DNA of 50,208 bases from Massalongia carnosa (lineage: Eukaryota), in the NCBI GenBank assembly GCA_965645245.1, contig OZ287067.1, positions 3,720,001 to 3,770,208 on the forward strand, written 5' to 3'. The translations under genes were made by a program, and so were the position numbers. The notes beneath the pieces were generated by a model. That model searched no databases. It was not told the origin of the DNA and saw nothing but the letters and a program-made list of their open reading frames with translations. This document shows, piece after piece, positions 8,256-41,707 of the stretch. Every line of letters begins with the position of its first letter. The stretch's first letter is position 1.

Positions 8256-10058
8256 GTCCGAGAAAGGCCTAACAACTCGGCTTCAGTGCTCGATGTGGTG
8301 ACCGTGGCTTGTTTAGCTGCTCGGCAGTCTATTGGTCTACCATACAGCTGAAAAAGGTAACCATCGGAGCTTCTTCGAGTCAACTCATCATCAGCAAACG
8401 CTGCATCGCTAGCACACATCAGAATATCAGTTTTCTGATGACCGATATATTCTATTGCCAGGTTTTTAGTCCCATTTAGAAAAGCAATAACCCGATCGGC
8501 CGCAGACAGATGATCCGGGCACGGGTTTTGTAAGAATTGAGCTAATTTTGCAGTTGCAAATGCTATATCGGGCCGGGATATTACCGCTGCGAAGATCAAT
8601 GAACCTACCCGTTGCTGGTACGCATATATACGTTGACTGTCTGCTTTTTGCTCGTTTTCATAGGCTGGAGGCACCACTGTCAGTGGTGTTTTCGCGGTTT
8701 CCCGGTGCTGATTAAATTTCGCAGCCATTTTGGTAATGTATGAGTCCTGACATAACCATATCTTCTTATTTGCCCGGTCTCGGGTAATCCTTATACCGAG
8801 AAACCATTTCAATTCCCCTAGAGCATGCATTTCGAATCGTTTCAGGAGAGCTTTCTCAAATTCTCAAAATTTGTCCGAATTATTGTTCCTGCGTATGACC
8901 ACAATTTCATCGACATAGAAGCATAGGATAATCCACTCATTGGCAAATAGACAATTGACCCCTGGGACTGGCGCTAGTCCGAGTTCCTATAGGGCCATGG
9001 TTAGGAGCTTATACAATAGAATCGGTGCATGTTTTAATCCGTACAGAGCTTTTCAAAGCTTCCAACAGTATCCGGGCTTGTCAAAACCTTCTGGACACTC
9101 ACAAAAGATTTCCTCATCAATCGGGCTATTTATGGAAGCACTGACCGCATCATACTGGTAGATATCGAGGTCAAATGCAGCTGAAATAGCCATTAGAGCT
9201 CGAAACGTTCTCGCCGCCAATGTTGCAGCATACGTATCTTGCTGAGTCATCTGAAGATCTCCTCGTACACATAGACGGGCCTTGAATTTCTCAACATAGC
9301 CGTCCGTGTCATGCTTATACTCAAATACCCAGGTGAGTGGTATACGGTCCTGTCCCTGAACTTTTTCCACTAGCTCGTACGTACCACGCTTTTCAAGCTT
9401 GGTGAGCTCTTTGATGGCCGCTAGCTGGAATTGCTGCGAAAAACGGTGATGGAGCATCTACCTCCAATATCGGGGCTCTACCGGGATCTCATCCCGATGG
9501 AATTTCTTCAAGGTTCCGACCTGTGGCCGTTCTAGGCCGACCGAAAACGCTGCATGGGACGGGCTTAACTTGCTGACTGATGCCAGCGCAATTGCATATG
9601 CCTGTTTCCTTTATCTAGTGTTCCTGGCAATTGATTCATCCGTTGTCTCTACCACCCGAGGCGTCCGTCTCGGCCTAGCCGACTGTCTCGGCAGGCTCGG
9701 TCCGTCCTCGGTTGATTGAACACCTGGCATTCCTTGAACGTCCGGCTCGGAGCTTATTTGAACGTCCGATTGCAGAATCTTTTCCAAACCATCACGCTCC
9801 GGTGTCTTTTCAGGGGTAGGTAAGTGAGGATTCTTTTCCATATCGGTAGGAGGAAACATCGTCTTTTCTGACGTTTCTGTTTCACTAGGTTGATTGGTTG
9901 TTTGGTCCAATCTCGGACCTACCTCCTCATCGTCTTGCTCAATCATCACTCCTGCAAAGGATGTTTCGGGCACTTCCAAAACCTGAATTACGTTTTTCAC
10001 GGTTATGTTTAATAAATGTCCTATATCGAGCTCATTGGGCTCATAGAATCTTGTCTTA

Positions 10059-10275
10059 CCGTCGACTGCAAAAGGTCGGTCGCGACCCTGAATTTGGGAC
10101 CACACATCAAATATTTACGCGAAAATGGCAAAATGCCGGCAAAAATCTGAAAACTACCCTCACCGCCTACATGCCAATGAAGTCGTACTACTGGTCAGTA
10201 TTGAAGCGATATGTAGATTAGTATATGTATATGCCATTCCCCGTCTTTTTTCCCTCCCCCCTCTGCCATTCTCCA
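10059..10275 (+). repeat. Left TIR of the Tc1/mariner
   Basis: CCGTCGACTGCAAAAGG...CTCTGCCATT is the inverted match of ~13530-13738. Confidence 0.93.
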
Positions 10276-10290
10276 TTTTTTACCTCAGAT

Positions 10291-12480
10291 ATGAAACTTC
10301 GTGAACCGAGAGCAAAAAGATCAAATTCCGGCCACCCCCCGGCTGGAAAAGAGCCTTTCAAAGGTAAGAGAATCAAACTGACTTAGGGAGGGCCGAGAGC
10401 CAGAGCCATTGTCGCCGCCGGCATCGATGAAGCCTCGCCGGAATCGACGCCGGCTCCTCCCAAGCCAAAGCCTCTCCTCAAGTCAAAGCCCCCCTTCAAG
10501 CCAAAGGCCCCCCTCAAGTCAAAGGCCCCTCCCAAGGCAAAGGTCCCTCCCAAGCCAAAGGCCCCTCCCAAGTCAAAGGTCTAGCCTCAGCAGTTAAAGA
10601 CTTTCGAATCGAATTATTATAGTCCCCTTGTCATTACGGAGGATCTCCGACGACTGGACGGATGAAGACGGGAAGCAGAGGTGGCAGGGTCAGTGGAGAA
10701 AGGAGAACGCGATGAAAGCTGTAGATGCCGAAGATGATGCCGAAGATGATTCCGAAGATGATGCCGAAGATGATGTCGAAGATCTCAATGTGCCTAGTAA
10801 CTCGATTGTCAGTAAGAAGTCTAGAAAACCAAGAAGAAAGGAACCCTCCCGTTTATCCCCTTCGCCGCTGCCTCCGACGGTAATCAAATATCTACTAAAT
10901 GTGAAGATGTCGTATGAGAAGCACGTCGTTTTCGAGACGGTGATTCTATACGAAGTCAATTCAACTACGTCGAAAAGATTCTTTTCGAGAAGCTACACCG
11001 GGGACATGAGTTTAAAAGCCGAGACGTATGCGAATTCCAAAATGTATGCTTGTCATTTGGTCGATATCAAAGCGACCGTATTATGGAATGGAATCAAATC
11101 GCATGAAAAATCAGCTCTCATGTTGATCGAATCCTGGCAGCCCATTGAGGAGGTTCTAATTCATTTAGAATACAGCAGCATTCGAAAGAAAAGCTTCGCG
11201 GTTGATCTTATTTTCAACTTCAGTCGTACCAGAGATGGCGTCACTCCTCCCGATGATCCTATTGCTGCTGCCACAGCTGTCGCCACCAAGAAATTGGGAA
11301 CCGCGACCATGAAGCTGCAAAAAGAGATGGAGGAACGAGCCATGTTGCAAGGCATGACGGCCAAAAGAATGTCCGAATTGCAAAGTCTGCATCTCTGTTA
11401 AAAACGCGCATGTAGGAATTTCGGACAGTACTGTTGGAATGATGAGACGAAGAATCAGCATTATCCTCTCAACAGTGCTCATTTCGTGACCTGGAATAAA
11501 GCACTAGATGATGGAATTTCAGGCGTTGATTCTCGAATACCTCCACCGAAGATCAGAGAGAATTTATTCTCCCTGAATAAAGGTAAGAAAAAGACTGAAT
11601 CATCATCTCCAAAACAGGAAACCTCGTCTCAGGAAATGCCCTTTAGAGGTGGGCATTCCATTTATCAACATCCCATGTATCAACACCACTCGTACCAAAT
11701 CCCCCACTCGATATTTCCCCCCTCGTCATTGGCATTCCCCTCGACATTTCCCTCGGCATTCCCCTCGGCATTTCCTCACTCGGCATTTCCCTCCCGGCAT
11801 TTTATCCTTCTCAGTATGCTCCTTCTACATTACCTGACTCGAGAAGAGCCCTTGAGGAAACGCCGTTGGATTGGAGATATTCGAGATCATCAAGAAGCAG
11901 TCGAAGCGTGAGTCGATTTCTTCCTCTCCCCTCCGTCGCCCGCAGCAGTCCAGTGGAAGAAGATCTGGAAGACTATGTCAGTTGGCTTGTTCCAATGAAG
12001 CCTCATTTGAAAGGAGTGCTTACCAACGCCTGCGATCGATTGATGGAAGATGGGTACGATCTGATGACCGTTCAATCCTTGAAAGGCATCGAGCATCAGA
12101 CGTTCTGGCAGGAGCTAGGAATTCCTCCGGGAATCGGGATTCAACTGGCGCGAGATGTCAGTAAATTTGGAAGAGGAATGTCTCGGCAAATGCCTTTGCA
12201 AATGTCTCGACAAATGTCTCGACAAATGTCTCGACAGATATCTCAGCAAATGCCCCCGCCTCCCCCTCGGCGTCAACGCCATTTACCGACATCGCAAATG
12301 GCCACTCAGGCGGTCACTCAGGCGGTCACTCGGGTGGATAAGGGGATGGAGGATGGGGAGGTGGACGGGGGCGGGGAGGTAGGATCTGGAGTGAGAGATA
12401 CAATTGAGGAAGATGAGACGCATAGTCTAGAATACGATTTTGCCGAAGATGAAGATGAGGATTCGATACTATGTATCTAA
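10291..12480 (+). pseudogene. Second (cargo/accessory) gene of the Tc1/mariner, unknown function
   Basis: ATG at 10291 (MKLREPRAKRS). Features are Pro/Lys repeats, an acidic patch, a C-x4-C-x6-C-x8-H motif at ~11396-11463 and a C-terminal helical domain. It is broken by TAG/TAA stops and at least two frame changes. Confidence 0.7.
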
Positions 12481-13525
12481 TCAGATTGAAATGGTGGGAT
12501 ACTGAATTCCAGCCAATCTAAATAAATTTCCCGGGTCTCCTATTCTCAGATCTTTGACTGAATCCGGAAGAAATTGTCCGAATCCCCCATACTCCTCCGT
12601 GTACGAAAGACTCATTTCTCTATTCCGTCGAATCCATGCCTTTAGCAATGCAAACGGCGTTTCAATTGGATTGAAATATGGAGAATAAGGAGGTAGTCGT
12701 GCCAAGGTGACGTTGGCTGTCACGCACATCTGAATAAGCTCATGATTCCAATGAATGCTGGCATTATCTATTCCTAAAACAGATCTAGGACCTCCATTGG
12801 CAGTCGTCTGAGGAAGAACCTGATTTCGAACGAAGTCGTTGAAAATTTCGGCAGTTATGGAGCCCTGATGCACCTCCCAAGCTATATATCCATCGACGGT
12901 AAATGCAGGAAGAATGCTCCATCTCTTTGACCTTTTCAAATCCTGAATCATGATTGGAGGGACGCCTGCCTGAGCCCATCGGTGTCGTCGATTACCTAGT
13001 CAGAAAGTCAGAAAAATGACGAAGATGGGATAAAAGATGAGATAGGAAATAACCGGTTCTTTCGCAAGCTGCACTTTCGTCCAAAAAGATCAATTGCTCT
13101 GCTGTCCATTCTCCGAGTCTCTGCATCCATCCATCTCGAAGGCCTTGATTTCTTTGAGCTGCTTGTTTGATCACCTTCTTTCGATTCCAACCAAGCCTTT
13201 TTAGGGCACGACCAACGGTGGTCTCATCTGCAGAGATCTGAAATTCGTCCCAAATGAACCAGTACATTTCGTCCAGATAGGCATGCGGACGTTGCTCCAG
13301 ATATTTCAGAAGTTCAATCTCATGAAATTGACTGAGTTTACGAGGGCGATGTCCAATTGACAATTGAGGTAGAAGCACATCTCCAAAATGAGTCCAATTA
13401 CGTCTCATTCGTTGAATCTGTCTGATGCCAACACCAGTAACAGATTCAATTGTCTTATTGCTGTCACCTCGTACCAAACGAAGCGTGATTGTCTCACGAA
13501 GGGTCTCACTGAGAGGGGGGGGCAT
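12481..13525 (-). CDS. DD34E transposase with N-terminal HTH and one 58-nt intron (12996-13053)
   Basis: Motifs FLDES, IDNASIH and LPPYSPYFNPIE, with 34 residues between the second D and E. A GT..CTGACTAG intron joins ACERTG|NRRHRWAQ in frame with ORF 12481-12951. Confidence 0.9.
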
Positions 13526-13529
13526 TTTG

Positions 13530-13738
13530 GGAAAATGGCAGAGGAGAGAGGGAAAAAAGACGGGTAATGGCATCTACATATACTAATCTACAAGTCGCTT
13601 CGATACTGACCAGTAGTACGACTTCATTGGCATGTAGGCGGTGAGGGTAGTTTTTCGGATTTTTGCCGGCATTTTGCCATTTTCGCGTGATGTGTGGTCC
13701 CAAATTCAGGGTCGCGACCAACCTTTTGCAGTCGACTG
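13530..13738 (-). repeat. Right TIR of the Tc1/mariner
   Basis: AATGGCAGAG...CCTTTTGCAGTCGACTG, inverted copy of the left TIR. Confidence 0.93.
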
Positions 13739-14441
13739 TATCAAACATTACATCCCTGGTCCGGATGACTTTCATGCGGCTGGGAATCCATATTCGAAAG
13801 TTGTTAGTGGAGTCGTACCCCACCAGGTATCCAATAAAAGCCCTTGGTTCGAGCTTCTCTTTCCTGGGAACCACCTGATTCAGCGGGAACGCTCGACAAC
13901 CATACGGCTGCAGGTGAGATAGTTTCGGTTTTTCCCCGGTTAATTTATCTATTGGTGTTTTCCAACCTAGCATCTTCATCGGGGTCCGGTTATTTAGATA
14001 ACCAACCGTTTTGAATATTTCTGGCCACATACTAGCTGGCAAATTTGCTGCTATGCGCAGGGCCCGCGCTCGGATCACCAGTACCCCCCCAGATCGCTCG
14101 GTTTGACCGTTTTGTGCTGGAGTATATCGGGCCGATCTTTCGGTAGTGATACATCTCATTTTCATGATCTCGGCGAATTCTAAGCCAAGGGTTCGCTCGT
14201 CGTCTGTTCGAAAAAACCGAACGGTCTGATCGTATCTAGTCTTGGTCATTTTCAGGAATTCCTTGATCACCCCTAGAGCATCATTATTTAGAGTATGAGT
14301 GAAGACGAAGTCCATACTTGTATAAAAACACCTGAAGTGGCTCACCCAGTTGTCCCCGTTGTATGCTTCAGTCAGCTGAATAAGGTCATACCCTACTCGA
14401 CCGAGCGGAAAATTCGCTGGCTCTTCCTGTCCCGAACTTCT

Positions 14442-14612
14442 TGTGACGAAGCGAGATAGTGAATAGATTTCTACCATTGCGCCACCTGTCCTTCCCGACC
14501 AAAAGGCACAGTACTTAGTCCGCAGACCAAGCTCTATTCTACTATAACTGGGACTCCTGCTATGTTCGCTGTAGGTCCTGCCGTCCGCACCACGCTTGGT
14601 CGAACCGTTACA
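14442..14612. mobile_element. 171-bp solo LTR in Copia B
   Basis: TGTGACG...CGTTACA, TSD CTTCT at 14437-41 and 14613-17. Confidence 0.9.
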
Positions 14613-16524
14613 CTTCTCGAGATCAGGTGATGGGCTTTGGTCAGCGAGCATGTCTCGCATTGCATCGTATTCGGTGCTGACTCGGGTACTGTTACCTTAA
14701 CTCCATCTACCCCCTTTTCGAGGTGAGAAATTGTTTCCGGTCCAGGATGACCGAGCATCTCGTGCCACTCTTTTCCCGTCGCTATCAATTCCGGTTTCGG
14801 ACTGGTACTGGCCGCAAATGCTCTATGCGGCCTTACCGTTGGTGGGTTGTCTTCTATCACCCAATGGCCCCCTATTTGCTTTGTGCGGCAGAACGTCTTT
14901 CCCTTCTGATGCAGATGAGAATGTTCGGTGTCCCAGTGAACCCCCTTCTTTGTTAGCTTGCTTAGGCACACCAAATTGGTGAAAAATCCTGAGGATAGCG
15001 CCACATCTAGAAGCCTGATTGGCACTGGCCCATGAGGTCCTTGTGCCGTAATATCTACCGTTCCATATCCATCTATGCTATAAACGGTTTTTCCGGCCAT
15101 GAGCTTGTCATCAGTGTTTGCTATACGCGTCAACTGAAACCGATCCGGTTCATTGTATACATGAATATCTGTTCCGCAATCCAGGGTCCAACAGTTGACC
15201 AACCTATGTGGCTCCGGTTCGGAAGCAACTGCAAACGTTGAAAACGATCTAGGTTGTGCGGCAGGCAAGATCGAGACTGATGATCCGGCAGGCACTATCG
15301 AAACTGCAAATGCTGCAGGATCGGATTTTTCTGAAGACGATTTCTCTTCCTTTCCGACTTTTTCGACTTGTTTTGCGTGCTTATCTCGGACCGACTTGAT
15401 GATCTTATCTAGCCGATGATTCTTAGCTAGCTTTTCTTCTATTATTTTCTCAATGCTCTTATCCGGGGTCCACCCCTCTAGCCTCAGGTCCTTGAGCAAA
15501 TAGTAGCAATCCTTGAAGCGGTGCTTCTTGCCACATATGCACTTCTTCTCGGAATTTCCTTGGTCCGAGTTAGATCCCTGAGCTGATTTTTGACTCATTG
15601 TCGAGTTCGATTTTTCTTGATCTGATTGGTCAGATCCTTGAAATGTTGCAAATGCCGAATGGGTAGCCCCCTTGCTATCTAGGGCCCTGGCGGTTCGCAA
15701 ATGATTCCGGAATTCTTCCAGAAGATCCCTTATCGAGAAATCTTCCTCATTCCGATGAATTTTATACTGTAATATGGCCTCTCTGCCGGCCACAAACGAA
15801 CCGTCTACTGTCCTCAGCGCATTCAAGAAATCATAAATGCATCTATGTCCCTGAACGTCCGGAATTTTCAGTCTATCCGCTTCTGCATAGACTTTCTCCC
15901 ATTCCAACAACCAGTGATCCAGTTGCTGACTCTTGGGGGCACGTTGTAGGTCCTTATATTTCCGAATAACTTCGAGTTCTCGGATCCGGTCCGTCGGTGC
16001 AAGCCTCTTCTTTAGAGCTGATAACTTCTTATATATCGAGTCCTGTCCCCTGAGATATAACAAATTGGTCCGATCCACGGTGGTCAATATATATGCTTCC
16101 AGGTTTTTTAGGGCTTCGGTCTTCTCCCGATACGTACGCAAGTCTTCTCTATGATCCTCTCTTCGCAATATCAGATCCCGTCGCCGTCCCTCGGTTAAGT
16201 CCTCGGATGACACGGCACCTGCTTTCATGGAAGAGAAGGTAGGGGTAATGGGTCTGATTAGCTCGTCTGGCTCAGGTTTCGCCAGGTCTACATAGTGCTC
16301 GATTCCACCTCGCTTGGCCATGGACTCCACGATAAGGATCCATTCATCCCAGTCACCGGACTCCTTGAGGACTACCACGATTTTCTGACTAGAAGCGGGC
16401 AAGGTAGAGAGAGACATCTTCTGTTCGATTGTCCAAAGAAGATGGAAGAAGTAACAATAAAGGTCAAGAAGAACTTGGGGATACTGATCGATGAATGCAG
16501 CGATTAGGAAGCCAGGCTCGTAAC

Positions 16525-16737
16525 TGTCGGACCGTTCTTATTGATCTGGAACATGATGTTCTCCTTGTCTATCTAAACTGGAAATTCTAGCTAGCTATAT
16601 AGACCATTTCGCCACATTCTTTCATAATCTCGATATCTTCCAGCCACTTCTATTTACTAATAGATCATTAGTGATCCGGAACCCATGCGAGGTACATTGC
16701 TTTGAAATCATTGAGTATTAGAAATCAGATATATGGC
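16525..16737 (-). repeat. Inner part of the Copia B 5' LTR
   Basis: Starts TGTCGGA adjacent to the PBS. Interrupted at ATGGC by Gypsy C. Confidence 0.75.
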
Positions 16738-16978
16738 TGTAAGGTTATTGTGACAGGCGATGGGAGGGAGCCCTATAGGGCTATGGCATGCGAGGATAGA
16801 ATGGATAAACTGACAACTAGCTATCTATAAGACCCGAAACGACTAATATATACCCCTCTCTGATGTCCTACTCCTAAGAAATTCCTATCCTGATAACTCC
16901 GATGACGCGTTGTCAGGGTCTAGACGTTCTGTCCCCGATCGAGGCGAGGATCCTCGTCCCCGTGTCGAGACCCTGACA
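16738..16978 (-). repeat. Gypsy C 3' LTR
   Basis: TGTAAGG...CCTGACA, near-identical to 35774-36014. Confidence 0.95.
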
Positions 16979-17030
16979 ATTGCCTCCCCCCTTTATATGG
17001 CGACGTCCTCGTTGCCAACGTGTGATCATT

Positions 17031-20000
17031 TTAGCCCTCGATTTCTTCTCGAATGTGTGCAGTCTTTTTCTCGCCCGCTTCTTTCCTCGTGTTTCTTTCT
17101 TTCCTGATCGTAGCTCCGTTTGGTTTATCGGGATTTTTCTTGTGAAAGGCCCGGACAGTAGCTTGACATGTGGTCAGGTTGTCTAAGGGTCCCCACGTGC
17201 AGTCCTCTATCCCGAATTCCGTCCATTTTACCAAGTACTCGACTCGTCCGTTTGTTGTTCTTCGCGAGTCTAGAATTCCGTCTACTTCCCATGACTCGTT
17301 GCCGGCATCTTCTACTAGCAGTTCTGTGGCTGGCGGTCGATTTTCCTCTCCCTCGCGAGGATGAAACGATTCTATCAGATTGACGTTGAACACCGGGTGA
17401 ATTCGAGATCTTGATGGCAGGTCTAGTCGATAAGCCTGTCTTCCTATTTTTTCGACTATTTCGTAGGGTCCGTAGCGACGAGCCTCCAATTTCTTTGATG
17501 GTTTTTTGGTCTTGATGTTCTTTTCGTTTAACCAAACCATTTCTCCTACATTATAACTTTTTGGAAGTCTCTTCTTATTATAATGAGTCGAGTACTGAAC
17601 GTTTGCCTCGGCACGGCGATATTTCAGTTCCTCGCGGAGGTTGCTGAGATGCTCTGCGTGTTCTGTAGCTGATTGAGATTCTTTCTCGTGTTTTTCTATC
17701 GCAAACTCCATTTTTGGATATCTTCCAGTGATTATAAAAAATGGTGTATGACTGGTTGCCGTATGTTTGCTGTTGTTGTATGCGAATTCTGCGGTGGCGA
17801 GTAGTTTTACCCAATCATCTTGTGTACTGTTGCAGAAAGCACGGAGGTCGGCTTCTAGAGTCTGCTTCTGCCGCTCAGTCTGACCGTCGGTTGATGGATG
17901 AAAAGCGGTACTGAGTTTTCGTTTTATCACCAGGTGATGACAAAGCGAGGTCCAAAATCCTGACGTGAATAAGCTTCCTCGGTCTGTGATTATGTCGTCT
18001 GAAATGCCGTGATAACGAACTATTCGATCGAGGAAGATGCTCGCGAGGTCCGAGGCCTTCATCGTTTTGCGACATGGTACGTAGTGAGCCATTTTGGATA
18101 ATTTATCCACTATAACCATTATGCTATCGAACGACGTGTTCCATGTATCAAGACTTGAGGGCAAGGCCGTTATGAAGTCCATGGTTATGCTTCCCCATAT
18201 TCGTTTTGCGATTAGTAGTGGCTTAAATTGTCCCCATGGTTTATGTCTAAGTGTCTTGTTTTGCTGACAAGAGTGCCAGGTTTGACAATATGTTTTCACA
18301 TCTTTTCTGATTGATGGCCACATGAAGACTCGTTTGATTAAATTCATTGTGCGTGTCACTCCTAGATGTCCTACTATCATATCATCGTGATGTCGGCGTA
18401 TAATTCCTGTTCTCAGACCATTAAAGTCGGGTACGTAGATTGCATTATCGAATAGAAGAATATTATTCGATCCTTCACTCCACCGACTGAAGCGGGCTGA
18501 TGTTTTGGGATTCTTTGATGATGATGTCCAGTGCTTGCGTACAGTTTGTACTTCCTCGTCCCTGTTTTGCTGTGTGCAAATTTCTTGTACGAGGTCCTCG
18601 GAGGAGTCTTCGGTGTGTCTCGTTGTGCCTATGTTAATGCTATTGAGTCCCTTATTGAGCTCTGTGTCTTGAGTCTCTGAGATTTTGAGTCGTTTAGAGT
18701 TGTTTCCTATGACGCCATCTATCGAAGTGTCTTCCTTTGTTTTAGAGGTGTTTGCCCGCGAGGCCCTCGCCTCGGTGTCCTCGCCTTCGCTTACTCTGTC
18801 CTCGTGTCTGCTCCCGTTCGTGCTTGAACGTCTGCGTTTCGTCATTGTGCTTTATGTGTCCTCTTCCTGTCTCCCTAGATGTCCTGATGTTCTGGTGTAT
18901 TTTCCATTTGACCCAGATTTTGCCTGACCTTTTGACCCGTCCCTTGTTCTTTCGAACTTGGGGTGTGACTGTGTCGCGTCCACAATCACACGTGGTCCCA
19001 CGAGGACCACTTGCTCGAGTTCCGCTGATAGGAGACTCTGCGCTATCGCCGAGGCTTCTTGCCTGACACCGCTGATGACCTTGCTAACACCGGCTTGCTC
19101 AATGCTCGGTGTCAGCACCTTTGAGGGTTGATCAAGCCCTTTACCCAAATGTGCCCTTTGAAGACCCTGAGCTACCTGTTGTAGACGTTTGGCCTTTCCG
19201 AAGGGGTGAATTGGTTTTCGAACTGTTGTGTCTCCTGTCGGCTTCTTCTTGGCTTTCATCGCTGCACTGGTCATGATTGCTAGAAGTGGTCCTCGCGAGG
19301 TCGAGCGCTCGCCTCGGGGTTTGCTGCTGAGAATGTCTTTGAGATAATTTAGGCTAGCGGTGTCTTGTGAAGTATCCTCATTGTTTCCTTTGTAGTCGAG
19401 TCCATCCGCTGGATTTGCTGTGCCCTTCTGGTATGTGATTCTAAAATCAAATGCTGTCAGCTTGTTTGCCTATTTGACTTGCCTTCGTGAAAGTTGTATG
19501 GTTGTCATAAAATACTGTAGATTTGCATGATCGCTTATGACGCTGATTTTGTATAGGGCCCCCTCCAAGTAGTGTCGCCAATGGGTCATGGATAATACGA
19601 TTGCTAGCAATTCCTGGTCGTGGGTCCCGTAGTTCCGTTCCGCTGTGTCCCATTTCTTGCTCCAGTATGCTACTAGTTGCCAATGCTTCTCCGACCCTTC
19701 TCCGTGTGGTTGAGAAAGGACAGCTCCCCCTGCATCGTCTGAAGCGTCTGTCTCCACTCTTATAGGTTTCTTAGGGTCGAAATGTCGCAGCAACGGCTTT
19801 TTCGTAAAAATCGCTTTGAGTTTCAGGAAGGCTTCCTCGGCTTCTTTTGTTAGGCCGAATCATTGCTTTGTTTTCCTCGGCTCTCCTCGCGAGCGTCCTC
19901 CCGAGGCAGTTTATTTGCCTCGCTCGTCTTATGTGCTTTCTTCTTTCTCTTGCCTGATCCCGTTTTGAGCAGTTCTAGTAGTGGCGTTGCTGTACGTGCG

Positions 20001-22755: not shown

Positions 22756-23551
22756 ACAGCTACAAGGCAACCCACCTTCCTACAACCCAAAGGCGTTGAG
22801 AACTCTTCGCCCAAAAAACCACTAAATGTCAGACCGACGAGAAGAGCAGGAGAAGGCTCCCCGCATCATTCTCCAAGGCTCCGAGAACTATACATTATGG
22901 CGATCCTACATTCTGGGAGAGCTCAAGCAGAAAAACTGCGCCTGGGCAGTCACCGGAAAGCCAGAGTCAACGAAGGAGTCCGTCAGATCGGACATCATTG
23001 TCATGGAATTACCTCGCACCCTCCCACGTTTCCTGATCGGGTTAGTATTTAACAGGCTCTCTTGCCGTGAAACCTGCCCTGCATGTTGAATAGAACCGTG
23101 GCCCGTTATTCCGAACTATCCTGAAACCTCGCCCCATGTGTTCAGACGTTCTTCCGCTGCCTTCAGTGCACTCCCAAACTCCTATATCCCGAATCCAATC
23201 TCAACGTCTCCACTATCCAAGCCTACGACTGGGATTGCCCAGCAGAGAGAGATTGCTTCGGCATGGAGAAAGGCGGAACAGGTCAAAGCGATCATGGTTA
23301 GGAAATTAGAACAGGAACAGAGATGAGGGCAAGTCAAGAATAGGGGAGTTGGAAGCCATGGCTATAAAACCTATGTGGTTTCTCAGGTGTTTGGAGCTCT
23401 TCGTCGGACGTCTTGTATACTATCCCTAGACCTAGCTTTCTAAATAGTAACTCTTGTATATCTCCCTATCTGGACCTTGTCCGTGACATTACGTCCGACC
23501 TACATTCAAGTGTTTCTTTGTTTTCTCTTTCCCCTATAACGATTGTTAATC

Positions 23552-24766
23552 ATGTCTTTTCAAGAAGAAACCGCAAATCTGCCTCAGGAACCTGAGGTAG
23601 CCCAAAAGGAGCGAGAACATGTCAGCAATAACCCGGACGAGTTCATCGCCGCCTATCGAGACCTGGAACGACAATTAGCTGAGATTCGAAACGCGGTTCC
23701 TCCAGCCATTAATCAAACGTCTTCCAACCCATTATTGGCAACCCCGTCATCAACTCCTTCTCCTTCCGTTCCGAGCTCCCAGCTGGCCGCCATTATAGAA
23801 CAGCTAATGAAACGACCAGCGTTTCCGCCCAGGTCCGAGAAACTTCCTGACATACCGGAGTATGACGGTGACGAGGACAAACTCGATGCTTGGGAACAGA
23901 ATCTAATTCAAAAAATGCACATTAACCATGACCGATACTTTTCCGATGAGGCCAAGATAGCTTATGCGGAGAGCAGACTCACCATCAGCAAGCGAGCCCA
24001 TCTGCTCATGACTCCCTACCGGATAGATGGCTTATGCCGCCTAACCTCTTTTTCGGACTGGAGAGCGAAACTTCGTCTGGCCTGTGGTAACCCCTTCGAG
24101 CAAGAGGATGCCCGTAAATATTTGCGAGACACCCTGAAACAGGGTAACCTAACCTTTGAGGAATATTACAACCTTTTCTCTCAGAAGAAGGAACGATCTA
24201 AAATGGAAGACGCCTCCCTCATCGATGCGATGAAGGCCAACATCAACTATTCCACCCAAACAGCGGCCATCCATTATCGAGTCCCCGGAACCAATCAGGA
24301 GCCCGTCACCTTCGACGAACATGTTGCAATGTGGGCCCAAACGGATCGAAAAATTCGTCAAATCAGGCATATCTCGCCACGCCAAGCCTCTGGAGCCTCA
24401 ATTAGCAACTCCTCAACTAAAAAGGGGGCATCCGTCGCCACCACCACTGCCGTTGTCAGGAGTCCTGCCCCCCGCTCCTCCACGATCGTCGTCGCTCCAG
24501 CCGTCACCCCTGCTGCGGTTCCTTCTCTTCCCGCAGGGGATCCGATGGACCTCAGCTCCGCCATGGCCGCTGTGAAAGGCCAAAGCCTGAAAGTCCCCGG
24601 AGTCAAGGAAATCTGCGAGCAATGGAGACTATGCTTCTACTGTAAGCAATCGCACCCTGGGAAGACCGCAATCGACTGTCCCAACAAGAAGGCCCCGTCT
24701 ACTATTCGGTCTCTTGTCCTTTACAACGACTCCGACGCCTCTGAGGATGCAGCGGGAAAAGCCTGA
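23552..24766 (+). CDS. gag: Gypsy E gag
   Basis: Open frame with DPMDLS and knuckle [16 protein letters not shown]. Ends at the slippery-like GGGAAAA just before TGA. Confidence 0.9.
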
Positions 24767-27700
24767 GCCCCGTATTCAGTCGCATACGAGGGCTTCAAAA
24801 GTCTGATTTATTGATTTCTGCATGTCTCCTTTCTGCATCATTTTCACCCCCCCTAATGTCCAACGCTCGTTTTTCTGCAGCGTCCGCTTTGACCTTGTTT
24901 GAAAACGATGAAACTTTCAAAGATAGCCATATGGTTGTCTCATGTATATTACGTCGTCTGCAAGCAAGGATAAGAGCTTTAATTCTCGTGGACTGTGGTG
25001 CATCAGGTTACTCATTCATCGATAAAGAATTCGCGCACCTTCATCAATTCCCCCTTCACCCCCTTAAATACCCTCGCCGACTCCTAGGTTTCGATGGTCA
25101 GCCTGCTCTGACCGGAAACATCACCCATGTGGCAGAAGTAACCATGGATCTCAATGGACACATAGAGAAACTGTTCCTATATGTGACCGGATTAAGACAT
25201 TACCCCATCGTCCTAGGACACCCATGGCTGCGTCGACATGGCGCTATCACTAACTTCGCCAATAATACCCTGTCATTATCCTCCCCATTTTGCCTAGCAC
25301 ATTGCTGTCCCGGCCCCGTAATGGTTCATTCAACCACCGCCGAGGAAGAACAGTTCCTTATGCCTGCCGAAAGTCAGAAGGTATGGGAGACTAAAGATCA
25401 AGAAACCATTCTGCAATCTAGTCAAACAGAACCATCGAAATTTGACTTTCAGGCTGAAGACGGTCCCAGTCGAATCCTAACCGCCATGCAAAAAGGCGTC
25501 TCCCCTAGGATCCGATACCGGTCCGGGAGCTACGTTCGTTTAGCACCTCGCTTACATACCTCAAACCCCCTGCCCAGTAAACTAACCGCGGTTGAATCCG
25601 CACCAACCAACCCAGCCCAGCTTCGAGTCAGTGAGGTGAGCGCCGGCACATTCGACCGCCTCGCAAGACAGAAGGACCACGAGATATTCAGTATCTCCCT
25701 CCAAGAAATAGACCGGTTCTTAGGTATAGAATCGCCTTTAAAACCCCCTAGCCCTAGCTCCAGGTCATCTATTAAGTTAATAGCAACCCAAGTTTTCCCC
25801 CCTTTTAACACTAAGGCCTGTCTAAGTGATAAGGACATGCACCTAGCCATTTGCAGAATGCACAATGAACTCACCCTAGAAACCTCCGTCACTCAAGAAG
25901 AACTTGAGCACGTTCGGCAGCAAAAGAACGTTGACCCGGCACCTCTGCTTCCAAAGCAATACCACAACTACCTAGATGTCTTTTCCAGAAAGGAGTCCGA
26001 TAAACTACCGGAACACCGCTCCCATGATCACGCCATCGTCTTAAAAGAAGGTTTTCAACCACCTAATCAAGCTCTTTACGGGATGAGTCGTGATGAGATC
26101 CAGGAACTTCGTCGTTATCTAGATGAGAATCTCACCAAAGGATTCATTCGATCTAGCCGCTCACATGCAGCCTCCCCGGTTATGTTTGTTAAGAAGCCCG
26201 GCGGAGGACTTCGATTCTGCGTCGACTACCGAGGACTAAACGCTGTCACCATAAAAAATCGTTATCCAATACCTCTAATCACCGAGACCCTCAACCGTTT
26301 GTGCAAAGCCAAGATATTTACCAAGTTGGATATTATATCAGCATTCAATCGCCTGAGAATCAAAGAGGGAGACGAAGAACTTACTGCTTTCCGGACTCGT
26401 TTCGGTCTCTACGAATATCTTGTCATGCCTTTCGGTCTGTGCAACGGACCTGCCTCGTTTCAACATTTTATCAATGACACCCTGAGGGAATACCTAGATA
26501 GATTCTGCACCGCGTAGCTAGATGACATCCTCATCTATAGTGATGACGAAATCGAACATGACCTACATGTAAAACAAGTCCTTGTCAAACTCAGAGAGGC
26601 CGGACTCCAAGCGGACATCACCAAGTGTGTCTTCGGAGTCACCGAGGTCCCCTATTTGGGTCTCATCGTCACTACTAAGGGAGTCAAGATGGATCCTGCC
26701 AAGATCGATACCGTCATCAATTGGCCTGCGCCCGTTAACGTTAGGGATGTTCAAAGCTTTCTAGGATTCGCCAATTTCTACAGGCGTTTCGTATTTGGGT
26801 TCAGTAAAATAGCCTCGCCGTTGACGAACCTAACCAAGAAGGGAACGAAATTCTCCTGGACTAGCGATTGTCAGCAAGCCTTCAATACGATGAAAAAAGC
26901 ATTTACCTCCGATCTTATTCTCATGCACTTTGATCCAGACAAGAAAATCGTGGTCGAAACGGACGCCTCCGACTTTGTATCGGCGGGTATCCTATCGCAA
27001 TATGATGAAAAAGATATCTTGCGTCCCGTCGCATACTTCTCGAAAAAGCATAACCCTGCCGAGTGTAACTATGAGATCTATGACAAAGAACTCATGGCCA
27101 TAGTTCGAGCTTTCGAGGAATGGAGACCTGAACTAGAAGGCTCCGCCCAACCCATCGATGTTATTTCAGACCATAAGAACCTGGAATATTTCACCTCTAC
27201 CAAGCTTTTGAGTCGGCGCCAGGCCCGATGGAGTGAGTTTCTATCTCGCTTCGACTATAAGATAGTCTACCGACCTGGGAAAGCCGGCGGTAAACCGGAT
27301 GCCCTAACTCGACGGTCAGGAGACCTCCCTGAAGAAGGGGATGAAACCGATGAGCGGAACTCATTTCAGCATCAGACGATACTGAAAACGCATAACCTAG
27401 ACGACGGAGTAGCCGAGAGCTTCAATGCAACAGTGGTTGGAACCTCCCCAGACCCCATAGTGCTCGCTCCTGCTATTCTTGATCAAGAACAAGATCTTGA
27501 CGAGGATGATGACACAGAGACGGATCATGAAGATCCCCAACTAGATTTAGTTACTGATCAGCTAAACCCCGACAATGACCCAATGGACGTGGCCACTCAG
27601 GACCTTTGGAACCGAGCCCTGGATAGGGATAAGTTTTCACCCCGTGTTCTAGAAATGCTTCGAAACGGATCGAGATATCATAGCGGCATACAACTAGCAG

Positions 27701-29139
27701 AGTGCGAAGACAGAAATGGGATTTTGTACTTCAGAAATCGACAATATGTACCCAAATCAGATAGCCTTCGCCTAAGAATCCTACAACTCGCTCACAATAG
27801 TGTCGCAGGTGGACACCCAGGCCGTGCCAAATGTTATGAACTCATCAGTCGCTCTTATTGGTGGCCTAGCATGCACAAAACGGTGCAACGATTCGTCAGA
27901 AACTGCCATGTCTGCAAAAGAGCCAAACCCTCCCGTGAACGTTATCAGGGGTGGCTTAGGCCCTTACCTCCACCTGAGCGTCGCTGGCGCGATGTTGCTA
28001 TGGATTATGTCGGACCCCTCTCGGCCAGCACCTTCATGGGAATCACCTATCGGTACATTCTAGTTTTCATAGATCGCCTAACCAAGATGCGCCATCTGGC
28101 TCCAGTCACATCCATGGAAGTCGAAGAAGCCGTAGATGCCTTCTATCAGAATGTATGGAAGCATCATGGCCTACCTGATGTTCTCGTATCAGATCGAGGT
28201 TCGCAGTTCGTATCGGAACTATGGGAATTGCTGTGTAAGCGGCTAAAAATCGACGCACGGTTGTCCACCGGATACCACCCGGAAACCGATGGCCAGACAG
28301 AACGAGCCAACGCCTCCATGGAGCATTATCTTAGAGCCTATGTCAACCATATGCAGGATGATTGGGCCAAGTGGCTACCAGGCGCTGAATTCGCGGCTAA
28401 TAATACGGACTCTTCCACAACTCTTGCTTCGCCATTTCTAGCAAATTCTGGTCAACACCCCCGTATAGGATTCGAACCCTCCGAGCCTCTCCCGACGGAC
28501 ATTACCGCTCAAAGTCGAAATAATCTGATCGCAGCTAATAAGTTCGCGGACAGGATGAGAGACTTAGAAACTCATCTTCATGATGAAATGTTAATCGCTC
28601 AAGCCATCTATGAATCCACTGCCAATGCAAACCGCCGACCATGCCCCCGCTATAAAGTGGGTGATATGGTATGGTTAAACACAAGGAATCTTCAAACAGC
28701 GAGACCCACCGTCAAGTTAGACGATCGAAACATCGGACCCTATGCGGTCAGTCGAGTTTTCTCAAACCCTCTAGTGATACAATTGGAGCTTCCTCCTGGT
28801 GTCAAGATCCACCCAGTTTTCCATGCAAACCTTCTGCAGCATGAAGCAGATGACCCCCTTCCTGGCCAGCATCCCGCCCCTCGTGAACCTGTCGAAGCAG
28901 AAGACGGACAGCGAGAATGGTATGTGAACAGCATATTGAACTCCAAATACGACCGACGATTTCAACCTCCACTCCTTCAATATTTCGTTAATTGGGAAGG
29001 TCATAATCCCACATGGGAACCTTTCAATTTCCTAACCAACTGTCAGCAAGCTCTAAACGAATATCATCAGGCTTACCCCACAGCTGCCGGACCACATCAC
29101 ACCCCTTGCAATCTACCCCGTTGCCGCTGCCAGGAATAG
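24757..29139 (+). pseudogene. pol: Gypsy E pol (-1 frame relative to gag) with a single TAG at 26515
   Basis: Motifs [40 protein letters not shown] and chromodomain WYVNSILN. ORFs 24811-26517 and 26656-29139 are in the same frame. Confidence 0.93.
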
Positions 29140-31552: not shown

Positions 31553-31807
31553 TGTGACGAGGCGGCAACGGGGGGGCCTATTCAGGTGGTGAAGGTGGTG
31601 GCATTGCTAGCTATGACTATACTAGATAGACAAGACGAACACAAGGAAGAAAGCATCAATTGCTGCAGAGATTTTCCATGTAACTCCCGGAACCCATTTC
31701 CTTACCTGAATGCGGTTAGCTCCCCACTAAGGCTAACGCGATACCTAAAACATTTAGCGTGTCGGGAGGTATCGCTTAGCAGAGCATCTCGCGCTCACAC
31801 CATGACA
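31553..31807. mobile_element. 255-bp solo LTR in Copia D
   Basis: TGTGA...TGACA, TSD CGCCA. Removal restores KIYNR|HEPQKRA. Confidence 0.92.
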
Positions 31808-34159
31808 CGCCACGAGCCTCAGAAACGAGCAAGCGAGTCGTACCAGTTTATACACACAGACCTAGTAGGTCCCATCAACCCTGTTGGTTTTGGAGGGGAG
31901 AGAAACTTCTTCACATTTACGGATGACTTCACGCGATATACCGAAGTGCACACTGGTGCCTGGAAAAGCGATTTGTTCAAATATCTCAAGACCTTCTACA
32001 ACCTCTGCAAAACCAGGTCACACAAGGAGAGACCAGTCGAACGCCTAAGTTCAGATTATGGATCAGAACTGCAGAGCAAAAGGGTAGAGGAATGTTTTGC
32101 GAAGAAGGGCATCACTTTTGAACCCTCAGCACCGTACTCTCAGGAACAAAACGGCGGCGTGTCAGAACGAATGGGAAGAACCATCATGGATATGACAAGA
32201 GCGACAATCCTAGAGGGAAGCCTTGATGACGAGCTGTGGCCTGAAATTGTTCTTGCGATGACATACGTCAAAAACGTTCGTCCCACGAAGGCTTTAGGTG
32301 GAGAAAACCCCTACAATGCACAGCAGAAAATCCACCCAGATATCCAACACTTCCGAGTGTTAGGCTCGACAGTGTACGTTCTCCTACGCGAAGAGGAACG
32401 AGCCTTAAAGTCTGAGAAGTGGAACCCACGAGCCTTAAGCGGTATTCTTGTTGGATACGATGGTCATACAATCTACAGAGTCCACATCCGAGAACAGAAC
32501 AAAGTCATTCGCATCAAAGATCTCAGAATCTTTGAAGACTACGAGGCCAAGACGTTCACCGAGCTTCCTGAATACAAAAACACTCCCACCTTCTCAGGTT
32601 TCTTACTCTCCGATGACGATGACGAGGCGACGAGTGACACACAGATGTTGGATGTAGGCCGAAAGTCCAACAATGCAACAGGTGCCAGCGAGTCAACTCC
32701 CAGTAAAGTAACCCCTAGGAAGGGCCGAAAGGTCACTACTAGAGATGAAAATACTGAGACAAGGAAGTCTCGGCCTGGCCGAACGATAAGGCCTACACAA
32801 AAGGCTCAAGATCAAGATCTGAGAGTATATCTCAGCAAGCTGCTAGACCTTGACTGGGAACACAGCTCGGAGGAAAAAGCAAACGCGTTCCTGACAAACA
32901 TCGTATGCGATGAGGACGGCCATGACGCAGACGACGACCCATACACAATCATGACTTCGAGGCTCATTCAGGCCAACGCCCAAAGTAAAGGAGACTACGT
33001 CCTTGCCACCCAATTATATATCGAAGAACCTGAGTCATACAACAGGGCAATGCAATGACCCCACGCCTCGCAGTGGGCACAGGCAATGAAAGAAGAAATA
33101 GACTCTCTACACGAAAACAAGACCTGGGTTCTCATACCAAAGAACGAGATGGAGTCAGGTCATCGACCTCTAGGGGGGGGAAGTGGGTGTACAAGGTCAA
33201 GCGTGATGTCGAAGGCAAGGTATCTAGATTCAAAGCCAGATGGGTTATCAAAGGGTACCTACAACAGTTTGGTGTTGATTTCGATCAAACCTACGCATCC
33301 GTAGTGAAGCCAATGGCCTTCAGAACCCTGTTCGCCCTTGCCGCCTTCTTCGACCTTGACATCGACCAGATGGACGTAAAAATGGCTTTTCTCTATGGCC
33401 TCATTGATCAACTGATATATATAGAGATTCCAAAGGGAACTGAGACAGAAGCCACAAAGAATATGGTTTGCAAACTGTTGAAAGCTATCTACGGCCTCAA
33501 ACAATCTCCCCGCCTCTGGTACGAACGCTTTTCAGCCTTCCTCCTCGAGAAACTAGGCTTGAAACGCATCCACGCAGACCACAGTATATTCGTATCGGGT
33601 GCACGGCTCAAAGGTCCCGTACTCAGCGTCTTCGTAGATGACATCAAGATTATGGCACACAACCCAGTATTCCATGCCAGGACCAAACACATCGATATCC
33701 AGCACCATTACATCCGAGACGAGGTGGAGGCAAAGAGAATCGAGTTGCCCTACGTGCCAACTGGGGGGATAATCGCCGACGGCCTGACGAAGGCCCTAAC
33801 GCACGTAAAGTTCCACACCTTTGTCGAACAGATGCAGATGACCTAGAGCCAAATCAGCACAGCCACACTACCTGGAGCCACAACCTACCAATGAACCGAT
33901 GCAACCAACAGCTGCTGATTCTTCCAGAAAAACGAGATAAAAATCGATTCGTTAGCGTGGGCGATTCTTACGTAACTAGCGCATAGCTTGTGGGGGGTTG
34001 TTGGATACCAACCTATAGCGCTAGACATTATTATGGTTACGTGTAACAGTAGACCTATTCCGGTATGCGGCACGCATCCTGGACTAGGAGGATTTCAGAC
34101 CTAGAAGTAGAGTCATAGAATCATTAATATAACAACAATGAATGCCTCATACTTCTACA

Positions 34160-40900: not shown

Positions 40901-41707
40901 TTGGAGGCGTACCTCCGGTCCTTTGTCTCATTCGAGCAGGACAACTGGGTGCAGTATCTGCCCATGGCTGAGTTCGCCTTCAATAACTCCAAGCACTCTA
41001 GCACCGGGTTGACTCCTTTCGAGTTGAACTGCGGTTATAATCCGCGGATGAGCTATGAGGATGAGCTGGAGCCCCGTTCGCGGTCTAGGGCGGCGGGGGC
41101 TGAGGTCGCGGAACTCAAAGAGCTTATGGACCTGTGCAAGGCAAACCTTAGAGGTGCACAAGAGTCTCAAGCTCGCTACCATAACAAGGCTACAAAGGAT
41201 CGTGTGTACAGCCCCGGCGAGTCAGTTTGGTTGGATGGCAAGCACTTTAACACGAAGAGGAATAGGAAGCTTGGACACAAGTTCCTAGGTCCATTCATGG
41301 TTATTGAGCCGATTGGCAAGCAAGCCTATCGCATCCAACTGCCGCCGCGTTGGCGAATCCACGATGTCTTTCATGTGTCTCTTCTGGAGAAGAATGGCAC
41401 TAAGAAGGGGGGAGTCGATAAAGAATTAGCGGAGCAGATAGAGTTCAATGAAAATGAACCAAAGGAGTACGAGGTCGAGAGTATTCAAGATTCGGCTGTC
41501 TATGCTAGGGAGTCGGAGGACGGGAGACCTGTAGGGCTTTATTATCTGATCCATTGGAAAGGATACCCTGAGTCTGAGGATAGCTGGGAACCGTATGCGG
41601 CCATCAAGCATTTACGCAAGATGGTGAGGTTATTCCATAGGATAATCCTTCAAAATCCACCGCAAGCGGAACCCCAGTCGATTCAGGTCCTCCACGTCCT
41701 CCTCTAG
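37919..41707 (+). CDS. pol: Gypsy F pol (PR-RT-RH-IN-chromo), open but with altered conserved residues
   Basis: 1262 aa with LIDSGS, YLDD, ETDASG, TMDFVT and YEVESIQD. Substitutions include CVYYRG, LAGPLG (HHCC His lost) and EGHTERQN. Confidence 0.92.
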   Translation: MTDPREAIAKHAPRLQREPYMLYDMQMVKDLSSLKALIDSGSEVNAIAPELVRSLGLPTLHTNWGAATIDGSRLTTHGMVLAKFSVDDKLERTRWFEETFLIANVSHDVVLGMPFLKLGNPDVHFAEGSLTWRDYSVSTSLPTERRIELVEPETFAEDARDDKSACFVVQVAAILDALDDARRVNLQAISTTEEIKLPVEYADYEGVFSAEKADELPSLTPDDHRIVLEEGKSPPHGPIYSLGPTELEALRGYIEVNLNNGFIRPSTSPAGAPILFIRKPSGGLRLCVYYRGLNNITIKNRYPLPLVGEALDRLGRAKEYTQLDLIHAYHRVRIAKGDEWKTAFRTRYGHFEYQVMPFGLSNAPATFQALINKVLAEKLDVFCIVYLDDILIYTGETGSAHTDAVKLVFEQLRKHGLYANLQKCRFSQKEVRFLGYIISPEGIRMENDRIESVRSWPRPQCVRDIQVFIGFANFYRRFIKGFSKIARPLTAMLKTTGPKMPKLDSFLTAEALVAFDQLKGAFVTAPVLRHFDAERHIRVETDASGYAIGGILSQKDDESHWHPVAYFSRKMIPAECNYETHDAELLAIVEAFRHWRHYLEGSTHEVLVLTDHNNLKRFMDTKRLGGRQIRWAQELSRYNFRIDYRQGSHNPAHALSRPAQAETDDDELIVENRQILHRLQDSLLLNEPVTIRACKALSQPKKPRERDYSQGYRKMMLKVIICGTAVVPDLVKSWAVIRAVVAEEGPYTAIGSLLPRLPELLAEDKGAQAVRKRLATSEVNAFSGVSGEPWKESGDVLYYEGKPYIPETLRTELMARHHDDPLAGPLGIEKTQELLTRKYHWDTIKVDVEKYVDACDVCMRSKSQRHKPYGSLQSLPIPSHKWKDITMDFVTGLPRSCDRRGVGYDSILVIVDCLAKMVHYEAVMKTLTAEGLAEVIMDSVVRYHGLPDSIVTDRGSLFTSQFWPSLCYFVSIKRRLSTAFHPQTEGHTERQNSTLEAYLRSFVSFEQDNWVQYLPMAEFAFNNSKHSSTGLTPFELNCGYNPRMSYEDELEPRSRSRAAGAEVAELKELMDLCKANLRGAQESQARYHNKATKDRVYSPGESVWLDGKHFNTKRNRKLGHKFLGPFMVIEPIGKQAYRIQLPPRWRIHDVFHVSLLEKNGTKKGGVDKELAEQIEFNENEPKEYEVESIQDSAVYARESEDGRPVGLYYLIHWKGYPESEDSWEPYAAIKHLRKMVRLFHRIILQNPPQAEPQSIQVLHVLL

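Follow-up and report, generated by a model that had tools for sequence, protein, structure and literature searches.

A decayed Tc1-like element of Massalongia carnosa with a transposase gene and a second, convergent gene

The stretch analyzed here comprises 50,208 nucleotides (nt) from Massalongia carnosa (contig OZ287067.1 of assembly GCA_965645245.1, positions 3,720,001 to 3,770,208 of the forward strand) and is referred to below as the window. At 10059–13738 it contains an element in which an original prediction, made from the letters alone, had recognized a Tc1/mariner transposon with two convergent genes. The reading that we favor, with moderate confidence, is that the element belongs to an autonomous family of Tc1 (DD34E) type with two genes, of which it is a decayed copy inserted at a TA in a copia retrotransposon, and that its second gene, here called ORF2, encodes an accessory factor. 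The prediction that the second gene is an integral component rather than a random capture gains support from ORF2 fragments in multiple copies, from two preserved junctions with an inverted end, from a sister subfamily (B) in which ORF2 is still open and from a distant relative whose two genes converge and overlap.

Boundaries of the element and state of its two genes

The element occurs once in the window by blastn. Its inverted ends pair as three collinear arms (53, 37 and 134 nt, 91–97% identity); compared by blastn they give one match of 215 columns with 91.2% identity, and they differ by one 8-bp (base pair) insertion or deletion at about 10109–10116 of the left end. Scripted deletion of 10059–13738 together with one TA produced a minus-strand open frame of 467 amino acids (aa) belonging to a copia-type integrase. 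Since the excision restores an interrupted host frame, the boundaries and the TA duplication are exact, and what disrupted the integrase region of this copia-type element was a precise insertion that duplicated the TA. The TA flanks and the terminal inverted repeats (TIRs) of about 215 bp that had been predicted are thus borne out by the TIR matches and the restored frame. The open reading frame (ORF) at 13506–14660, part of the host retrotransposon, matches SH3_retrovirus in Pfam (E = 6.6e-20). All features are collected in Table 1.

The minus-strand gene encodes a product of 328 aa, and its ATG at 13525, the coordinate originally proposed, lies about 5 nt inside the right inverted end. It is interrupted by a 58-nt intron that the original prediction had not included. 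All 11 contiguous relatives align on both sides of this intron; their matches pause at 13052, or in two cases at 13049 and 13055, and start again at 12996 or, in one case, 12993. In Pfam, exon 2 hits DDE_3 (E = 3.4e-18; 66 bits, cut-off 28.6), while exon 1 falls just below the cut-off for HTH_33 (E = 1.8e-5; 24.7 bits, cut-off 25) and matches HTH_32 weakly (E = 1.2e-3; 19.7 bits, cut-off 33.7); DDE_3, a weak DDE_1 and helix-turn-helix models were the only matches of the two exons in the Pfam scan. In an alignment of 50 sequences (A5), D76 and E111 are near-invariant and separated by 34 residues, as in DD34E enzymes; the first catalytic Asp, in a D-E-S motif of exon 1, is aligned in 11 of 11 relatives. 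Judged by these features, the gene is a Tc1-type DD34E transposase with an intact frame, and the element belongs to the Tc1-like DD34E branch of the IS630-Tc1-mariner group. The minus-strand codon at 12676–78 specifies Tyr in place of the Asp that at least 90% of the 50 aligned relatives carry in the S-P-D-x-N-P-I-E block, immediately ahead of the catalytic Glu. The same Tyr is found in one other copy type, P0077, and the change may be inactivating.

The start of the second gene had also been placed correctly: the plus-strand ATG at 10291 is 17 nt inside the left inverted end, consistent with the basic N-termini of full-length relatives. What does not hold is the description of a working gene, as the window ORF2 has three in-frame stops (TAG 10384–86, TAG 10582–84 and TAA 11399–401) and two frameshifts (at about 10645 and 11797). 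Related fragments that span the first four of these lesions, taken in order along the gene, read straight through them in 3 of 3, 3 of 3, 3 of 3 and 12 of 12 cases, and at the fifth, near 11797, all 4 spanning fragments shift phase against the window, so the breaks are lesions and not introns. P0073 and P0200 (475 aa) are unbroken from the central domain to the C-terminus. Introns were also considered directly and rejected, the sole GT..AG pair near the first stop being 23 nt long and shifting the frame. It follows that ORF2 was ancestrally a single ORF without introns, and that the window copy, a pseudogene, is from its sequence unable to make the ORF2 protein.

At the meeting point of the two genes, the TAA at 12478–80 directly abuts TCA 12481–83 (TGA on the minus strand), so the zero spacer of the original prediction is real in the window copy, although it is not typical of the family. 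Among the C-terminal ORF2 fragments of type A, the type of the window copy, 13 of 16 stop five codons earlier (12463–65), one has the same end as the window copy and two stop even further upstream; the majority-stop position is a Ser codon in the window and Tyr in P0073. The C-terminal position of the window transposase is shared by 16 of 18 exon-2 fragments. The family-typical spacer is therefore 15 bp. From this comparison the ancestral ORF2 probably ended at 12465, and the zero spacer is a by-product of a lost stop, specific to the window copy. Because the spacer is only 0–15 bp, separate 3' untranslated regions (UTRs) are impossible. An AATAAA is present on the plus strand at 12521–12526, about 40 nt past the ORF2 stop and within the transposase coding region, and it may or may not be a poly(A) signal.

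Some smaller features of the ends and of ORF2 were also recorded. Short repeated motifs of the GCAAAAGG/GCAAAATG type and the TGCCATT type lie in and beside the left inverted end at 10068–10079, 10121–10139 and 10232–10281. We considered these direct repeats as transposase-binding sites, and at just 10–18 nt they are candidate protein-binding sites too weak to call. In-frame upstream ATGs are found inside both inverted ends, at 10231 for ORF2 and 13573 for the transposase (regions 10225–10290 and 13526–13573), and their use would give both proteins a near-identical hydrophobic leader of 16–20 aa. This leader may be only a by-product of the common end sequence, because full-length ORF2 relatives start at the position of ATG 10291. 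ORF2 itself contains four in-frame tandem repeats, at 10452–10597, 10724–10783, 11716–11781 and 12177–12272, with periods of 18, 12, 12 and 12 nt; in the same order they encode Pro/Lys-rich, Asp/Glu/Ala-rich, Phe/Pro/Ser-rich and Ser/Arg/Gln/Met-rich stretches, all in predicted disorder.

Relatives of ORF2 and their link with the transposase

With a 257-aa middle piece of ORF2 as query we obtained five clusters with 85–99% identity, all on Mb-sized contigs in ENA. Counting the members of these and of two additional clusters, the type-A ORF2 comprises 37 distinct fragments on contigs of 15 sizes, evidently from the same genome (P0007 is the window's own), and these are about 80–100% identical over the matched stretches. 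Exon-2 fragments of the window-type transposase also come from contigs of 15 sizes, 12 of which are in common with the ORF2 fragments. The shared sizes are weakly consistent with linkage of the two genes, weakly because the contigs are chromosome-sized. Moreover, two other copies, represented by P0005 and P0017, have ORFs that start within the inverted end and run on into ORF2, so that at least these two preserve the same junction.

The ORF2 cluster of sister subfamily B has six members, three of which are open at 584 aa and differ by 5–6 residues. A transposase type 83% identical to that of the window occurs on an overlapping set of contig sizes. Between A and B the transposase is 83% identical, as against about 56% for ORF2 overall. 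Within ORF2 the C-terminal domain (77%) and the Cys3-His region (66%) are the most alike, followed by the tail (63%), the central domain (55%) and the linker (54%), whereas identity is down to 27% in the disordered N-terminal part. Since the frame is open despite this large change and the best-folded parts are the best conserved, ORF2 appears to be under purifying selection.

More distant evidence comes from P0029, an ORF2-type protein with 42% identity to the window in the C-terminal domain, and P0096, a transposase type with 61% identity, both reported from a contig of 356,187 bp. P0029 has an unusual extension of 80 residues past its acidic patch. A single DNA could specify the ends of both proteins, one on each strand, over 57 codons in a row, and the limits of this stretch coincide precisely with the final residues of P0096 (start) and P0029 (end). 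In five shuffles no stretch exceeded 9 codons, and positive controls taken from the window were recovered at full length. When all 13,837 pairs of 101 ORF2-type and 137 transposase-type proteins were compared, P0029/P0096 stood at 56 codons and all the others at 15 or fewer. The two genes thus converge and overlap in the organism of P0029 and P0096. There the transposase stop lies about 98 codons past the ORF2 C-terminal domain, compared with about 96 for the consensus stop of the window family. No overlap was found for P0238 and P0123, which share a contig size of 71,736 bp.

These results bear on the view that ORF2 is a passenger, that is, a gene of the host or of foreign origin that a Tc1-like element picked up on one occasion and has carried along without a role in transposition. 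We regard this as unlikely: a useless gene should not stay open through about 44% amino-acid divergence, the domain order is kept in relatives at about 20–25% identity, and the tail-to-tail geometry is retained where the transposase is only 61% identical. In its favor, a function or interaction of ORF2 is something that we infer, and from A to B ORF2 has changed more quickly than the transposase (about 56% versus 83% identity). It can also be said that all type-A ORF2 fragments seen are broken and most transposase exon-2 fragments are whole, but at 2.2 kb ORF2 offers mutation a target about 4.7 times the size of exon 2 (0.47 kb), and more breaks are expected anyway.

ORF2 relatives extend well outside this set. 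A full HMMER scan with the C-terminal 204 aa gave 51 proteins with E ≤ 1e-3, including 14 with E ≤ 1e-10; P0053, with Tudor/Agenet repeats, was dropped as a low-complexity match. Eight relatives of 593–806 aa align over the full length (alignment A1) and have a common architecture, namely a basic N-terminus, a central domain, a Cys3-His motif, an SSPV motif and the C-terminal block PGIG.QLA..VS.WGR. The Lys/Arg-rich stretch of the basic N-terminus recurs among relatives, and the motif W-C-x4-C-x-N-x4-C-W-x-D..H..L..W is near-invariant in A1; its Cys and His codons in the window are at 11396, 11411, 11432 and 11459. On these alignments ORF2 is a genuine protein family of about 600–800 aa that reaches far beyond the source genome. 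One of the full-length relatives, KAL8738313.1, is a hypothetical protein on a 3407-bp contig in a metagenome-assembled genome of the lichen fungus Brigantiaea leucoxantha. Further relatives lie on contigs of 2.4–5.0 kb, about the size of the window element, which is suggestive of collapsed repeats without being proof. Fungal hypothetical proteins related to ORF2 are probably transposon genes, to be masked in annotation.

The AlphaFold model of P0074, a sister-subfamily protein, has two confident regions, at about 80–310 and, consisting of helices, at about 423–500, and the remainder is predicted to be disordered. For the C-terminal domain, the folds with the lowest root-mean-square deviation (rmsd) were SAM domains (Scm, Caskin and ASK3; 2.8–5.4 Å over 53–73 columns), and it also superposes on the helix-hairpin-helix N-terminal domains of RadA/RAD51C, all of them at E ≥ 1.8 and without significance; the Pfam scan of the ORF2 family gave no SAM match. 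Beta-grasp-type hits for P0074 (C-terminal domains of bacterial superantigens and a PB1 domain; E ≥ 0.01, rmsd 7–10 Å) were discounted. The ESM Atlas returned only clusters of unnamed eukaryotic hypothetical proteins with scores of 0.90–0.91, which are leads and not evidence, and a scan of bacterial and archaeal contigs with ORF2 profile A3 gave 44 pattern matches, none of which was confirmed.

Two kinds of unusual relative were seen. P0046 (491 aa) combines a partial Pfam DUF7924 at the N-terminus with an ORF2-type C-terminal domain, and it could be a fusion or two adjacent genes read as one. P0023, P0033, P0036, P0039, P0050 and P0069 are short relatives of the C-terminal domain, rich in Lys, Asn, Ile and Phe where intact members differ; AT-biased decay of repeat copies in other fungal genomes would give such a pattern.

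An artefact, whether a nested unrelated insertion, an assembly chimera or chance ORFs in filler, could at first be imagined from the fragmented plus-strand reading of the window and the lack of Pfam matches for the ORF2 pieces. This is extremely improbable. A repeat search found no internal repeats and no second target duplication inside the element, as would bear on a nested insertion, and the host frame is exactly restored on excision. The same ORF2 exists in many copies that read through every window lesion, 51 relatives score E ≤ 1e-3, and two of its regions fold with confidence. The artefact reading is effectively refuted by the relatives, the fold, the excision and the lesion read-through.

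Table 1. Features of the element and its insertion site in the window. The coordinates of the central domain were placed by hand, from the window translation and an alignment. pLDDT, predicted local distance difference test.
Feature	Position	Strand	Evidence
Left TA target-site duplication	10057..10058	.	Sequence and in-silico excision
Left TIR, ~216 bp	10059..10274	+	Repeat finding and blastn against right end
ORF2, ~729 codons, pseudogene here	10291..12480	+	Lesions compared with read-through by related fragments
ORF2 central alpha/beta domain (strand-strand-helix-strand-strand-helix-strand)	10880..11239	+	AlphaFold of P0074, residues ~80–205, block pLDDT ~80–95
ORF2 long helix and small Cys3-His hairpin/helix unit	11288..11575	+	Alignment A1; block pLDDT ~86–94, P0074 221–300
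ORF2 C-terminal helical domain (SSPV ... PGIG.QLA..VS.(F/W)GR)	11944..12174	+	51 relatives; alignment A4; block pLDDT 94–97, model residues 11–70
Transposase exon 2, catalytic part including TGA stop 12481–83	12481..12995	-	Pfam DDE_3; 145 relatives
Transposase intron, 58 nt, GT..AG	12996..13053	-	11/11 contiguous relatives
Transposase exon 1, putative helix-turn-helix DNA-binding part and first catalytic Asp	13054..13525	-	Pfam; frame open
Right TIR, ~209 bp	13530..13738	-	Repeat finding and blastn against left end
Right TA target-site duplication	13739..13740	.	Sequence and in-silico excision
Insertion host: integrase region of Ty1/copia-type retrotransposon, split by the element	9611..14660	-	Pfam and excised frame

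The window as a whole is a nest of retrotransposons (14534–18845, 23543–29139, 31586–33058 and 37919–41707). Besides the host copia-type element and another integrase of copia type, it includes at least three chromodomain elements of the Ty3/gypsy class, and in one of these a pol ORF of 1262 aa is uninterrupted. A 242-aa ORF at 43662–44390 matches an HNH_2 endonuclease domain (E = 2.2e-8).

A two-gene model and what it would mean

In the model that we favor, members of the family would carry two convergent genes that together fill the space between inverted ends of about 210 bp. The first would encode the 328-aa transposase and contain one intron, and the second, intronless, would be ORF2 with about 725 codons, laid out as a basic low-complexity N-terminus, a central alpha/beta domain, the Cys3-His unit and a C-terminal helical domain. 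The basic, Lys/Arg-rich N-terminus suggests a nuclear protein, and the Cys3-His unit and the helical domain may bind nucleic acid or chromatin. By analogy with the second proteins of MuDR, PIF/Harbinger and CACTA, ORF2 could help the transposase to recognize the ends, to assemble the transpososome or to enter the nucleus, among other tasks. The window copy itself would be movable at most by proteins from other copies.

Both genes would be transcribed inward, and promoters in the inverted ends are a reasonable inference. It is likewise reasonable to suppose that the 3' ends of the transcripts overlap, because a spacer of 0–15 bp cannot hold two 3' UTRs, and such overlapping transcripts could give double-stranded RNA (dsRNA) or autoregulation. 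ORF2 might instead be a counter-silencing or self-regulating factor outside the cutting machinery, comparable to the accessory proteins of VANDAL Mutator elements, or the convergent overlap might itself be the regulator through antisense RNA or dsRNA. The short spacer, or the 57-codon overlap in the relative, makes antisense transcripts very likely, and the termini of ORF2 are fast-evolving and disordered. According to passages of PMC3440606, antisense transcripts of MuDR come from failed termination between its genes, and PMC12973397, in the excerpts consulted, cites accessory proteins of VANDAL Mutator elements as evaders of epigenetic silencing. ORF2 has no similarity to any known silencing suppressor, however, and its conserved Cys3-His unit and helical domain fit plain DNA binding equally well; we consider a regulatory role of this kind rather unlikely.

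Several points weigh against a two-gene element with ORF2 as accessory factor. First, the link between ORF2 and the transposase beyond the window consists of protein fragments, coincidences of contig size and one case of antisense overlap. Second, the longest type-A ORF2 fragments are 536 and 475 aa, with no full-length protein among the best 8000 candidates scored (proteins to 1411 aa), and transposase exon-2 fragments are uninterrupted in 13 of 18; ORF2 may decay faster than the transposase, or may be dispensable. Third, no recurrent Pfam family was found in ORF2 among three window pieces, 18 family proteins and 39 members scanned at E ≤ 1, and there was no Myb-like, zinc-finger or recombinase match. 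The fold search of the whole P0074 model against the PDB gave nothing significant. The sole marginal match of the A4 profile in PDB sequences, a Lon protease segment at E = 0.0014, is probably due to chance, and the corresponding profile search with A1 gave no match. In addition, the element family may already be in Repbase or Dfam. A complex prediction of the transposase (two chains split at the intron) with residues 78–505 of the subfamily B ORF2, made without alignments or controls, reached 0.30 against a mark of 0.34, a score that is neutral as to binding.

A broader proposal, which we put forward only tentatively, is that ORF2 represents an ancient and hitherto unnamed accessory family that co-evolves with fungal Tc1-like transposases and is needed for transposition or for escape from silencing. 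Tc1/mariner elements are the model minimal transposons, with one gene and no required partner, and to this simplicity they owe a wide host range and their use as genetic tools. If the proposal is true, this lineage would be the first in Tc1/mariner to depend on a second protein and to be built like MuDR, with promoters in its ends and transcripts that converge and overlap. The two-protein strategy would then have been invented independently and convergently in a group that is the textbook case of self-sufficiency in one gene, and a lineage always carrying the second protein would show that accessory factors exist in Tc1/mariner as they do in Mutator, Harbinger and CACTA. ORF2 would also add to the proteins encoded by transposons an uncharacterized family that lacks a Pfam entry and has two regions of confident fold, and the tail-to-tail layout, with its spacer of 0–15 bp or true overlap in one relative, offers a compact natural system in which to ask if a transposon is regulated by convergent transcription.

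Comparison with known transposons

The element resembles Tc1-like DD34E transposons in its TA duplication, in the CAGT-like starts of its inverted repeats and in DDE_3 with 34-residue spacing, and probably in an N-terminal helix-turn-helix region. Unlike them, it has a second gene of about 725 codons, which makes up 60% of the element; IS630-Tc1-mariner elements typically encode one transposase, as stated in passages of PMC13469147. The same source, again in part, and bioRxiv 10.1101/2025.11.06.686975 describe Dici of Diutina catenulata, an element of about 4 kb that is flanked by TA and has multiple coding sequences, which its authors call unusual. Dici is thus also a fungal element of this superfamily with TA flanks and more than one coding sequence. 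By description, the level at which the two are compared, it differs in having three coding sequences, with a central transposase, a 143–146-aa unknown protein and a transposase relic; its transposases of 432–478 aa are grouped with Gambol/Hiker in those passages of PMC13469147.

A second element-encoded protein beside the transposase is also known in PIF/Harbinger and CACTA, for which direct interactions between transposase and accessory protein are reported in excerpts of PMC12973397, and in the ciliate TBE/Tec elements, which are related to Tc1/mariner and have three ORFs according to part of PMC7325037. All of these differ from the window element in transposase family, target duplication and accessory protein. 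For PIF/Harbinger in particular, the window transposase is of the DDE_3 type, and no Myb domain occurs in ORF2 and 39 relatives.

Surveys of fungal cut-and-paste elements (PMC5751038, PMC3441728 and PMC4188875), searched by term within their text, give Tc1/mariner elements as single-gene or do not mention second ORFs. In the full-text literature, with Repbase/Dfam, subscription journals and bioRxiv supplements outside the search, no fungal Tc1-like element with ORF2 or such a pairing was found. The ORF2 family and its pairing with a Tc1-like transposase therefore appear to be undescribed. The original proposal of an undescribed system was overstated, however: the architecture is known from MuDR, and multi-gene elements of the superfamily, although rare, are known in Dici and TBE/Tec.

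The nearest architecture is that of maize MuDR, which, according to passages of PMC3440606, has two convergent genes (a transposase and a second protein of unknown function) and ends of about 215 bp that hold the promoters, with antisense transcripts arising by failed termination between the genes. In the window element, too, convergent genes each begin at the inner edge of an end of about 215 bp, a near point-for-point agreement in geometry that concerns architecture only. Promoters in the ends have been shown for MuDR, whereas those of the window element are putative. The element duplicates TA, whereas the target duplication of Mutator is 9 bp, and both exons of its transposase were scanned with Pfam and gave DDE_3 and no MULE transposase match. 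The element itself is thus not a Mutator, and it is in the arrangement of its genes and ends that it comes closest to MuDR.

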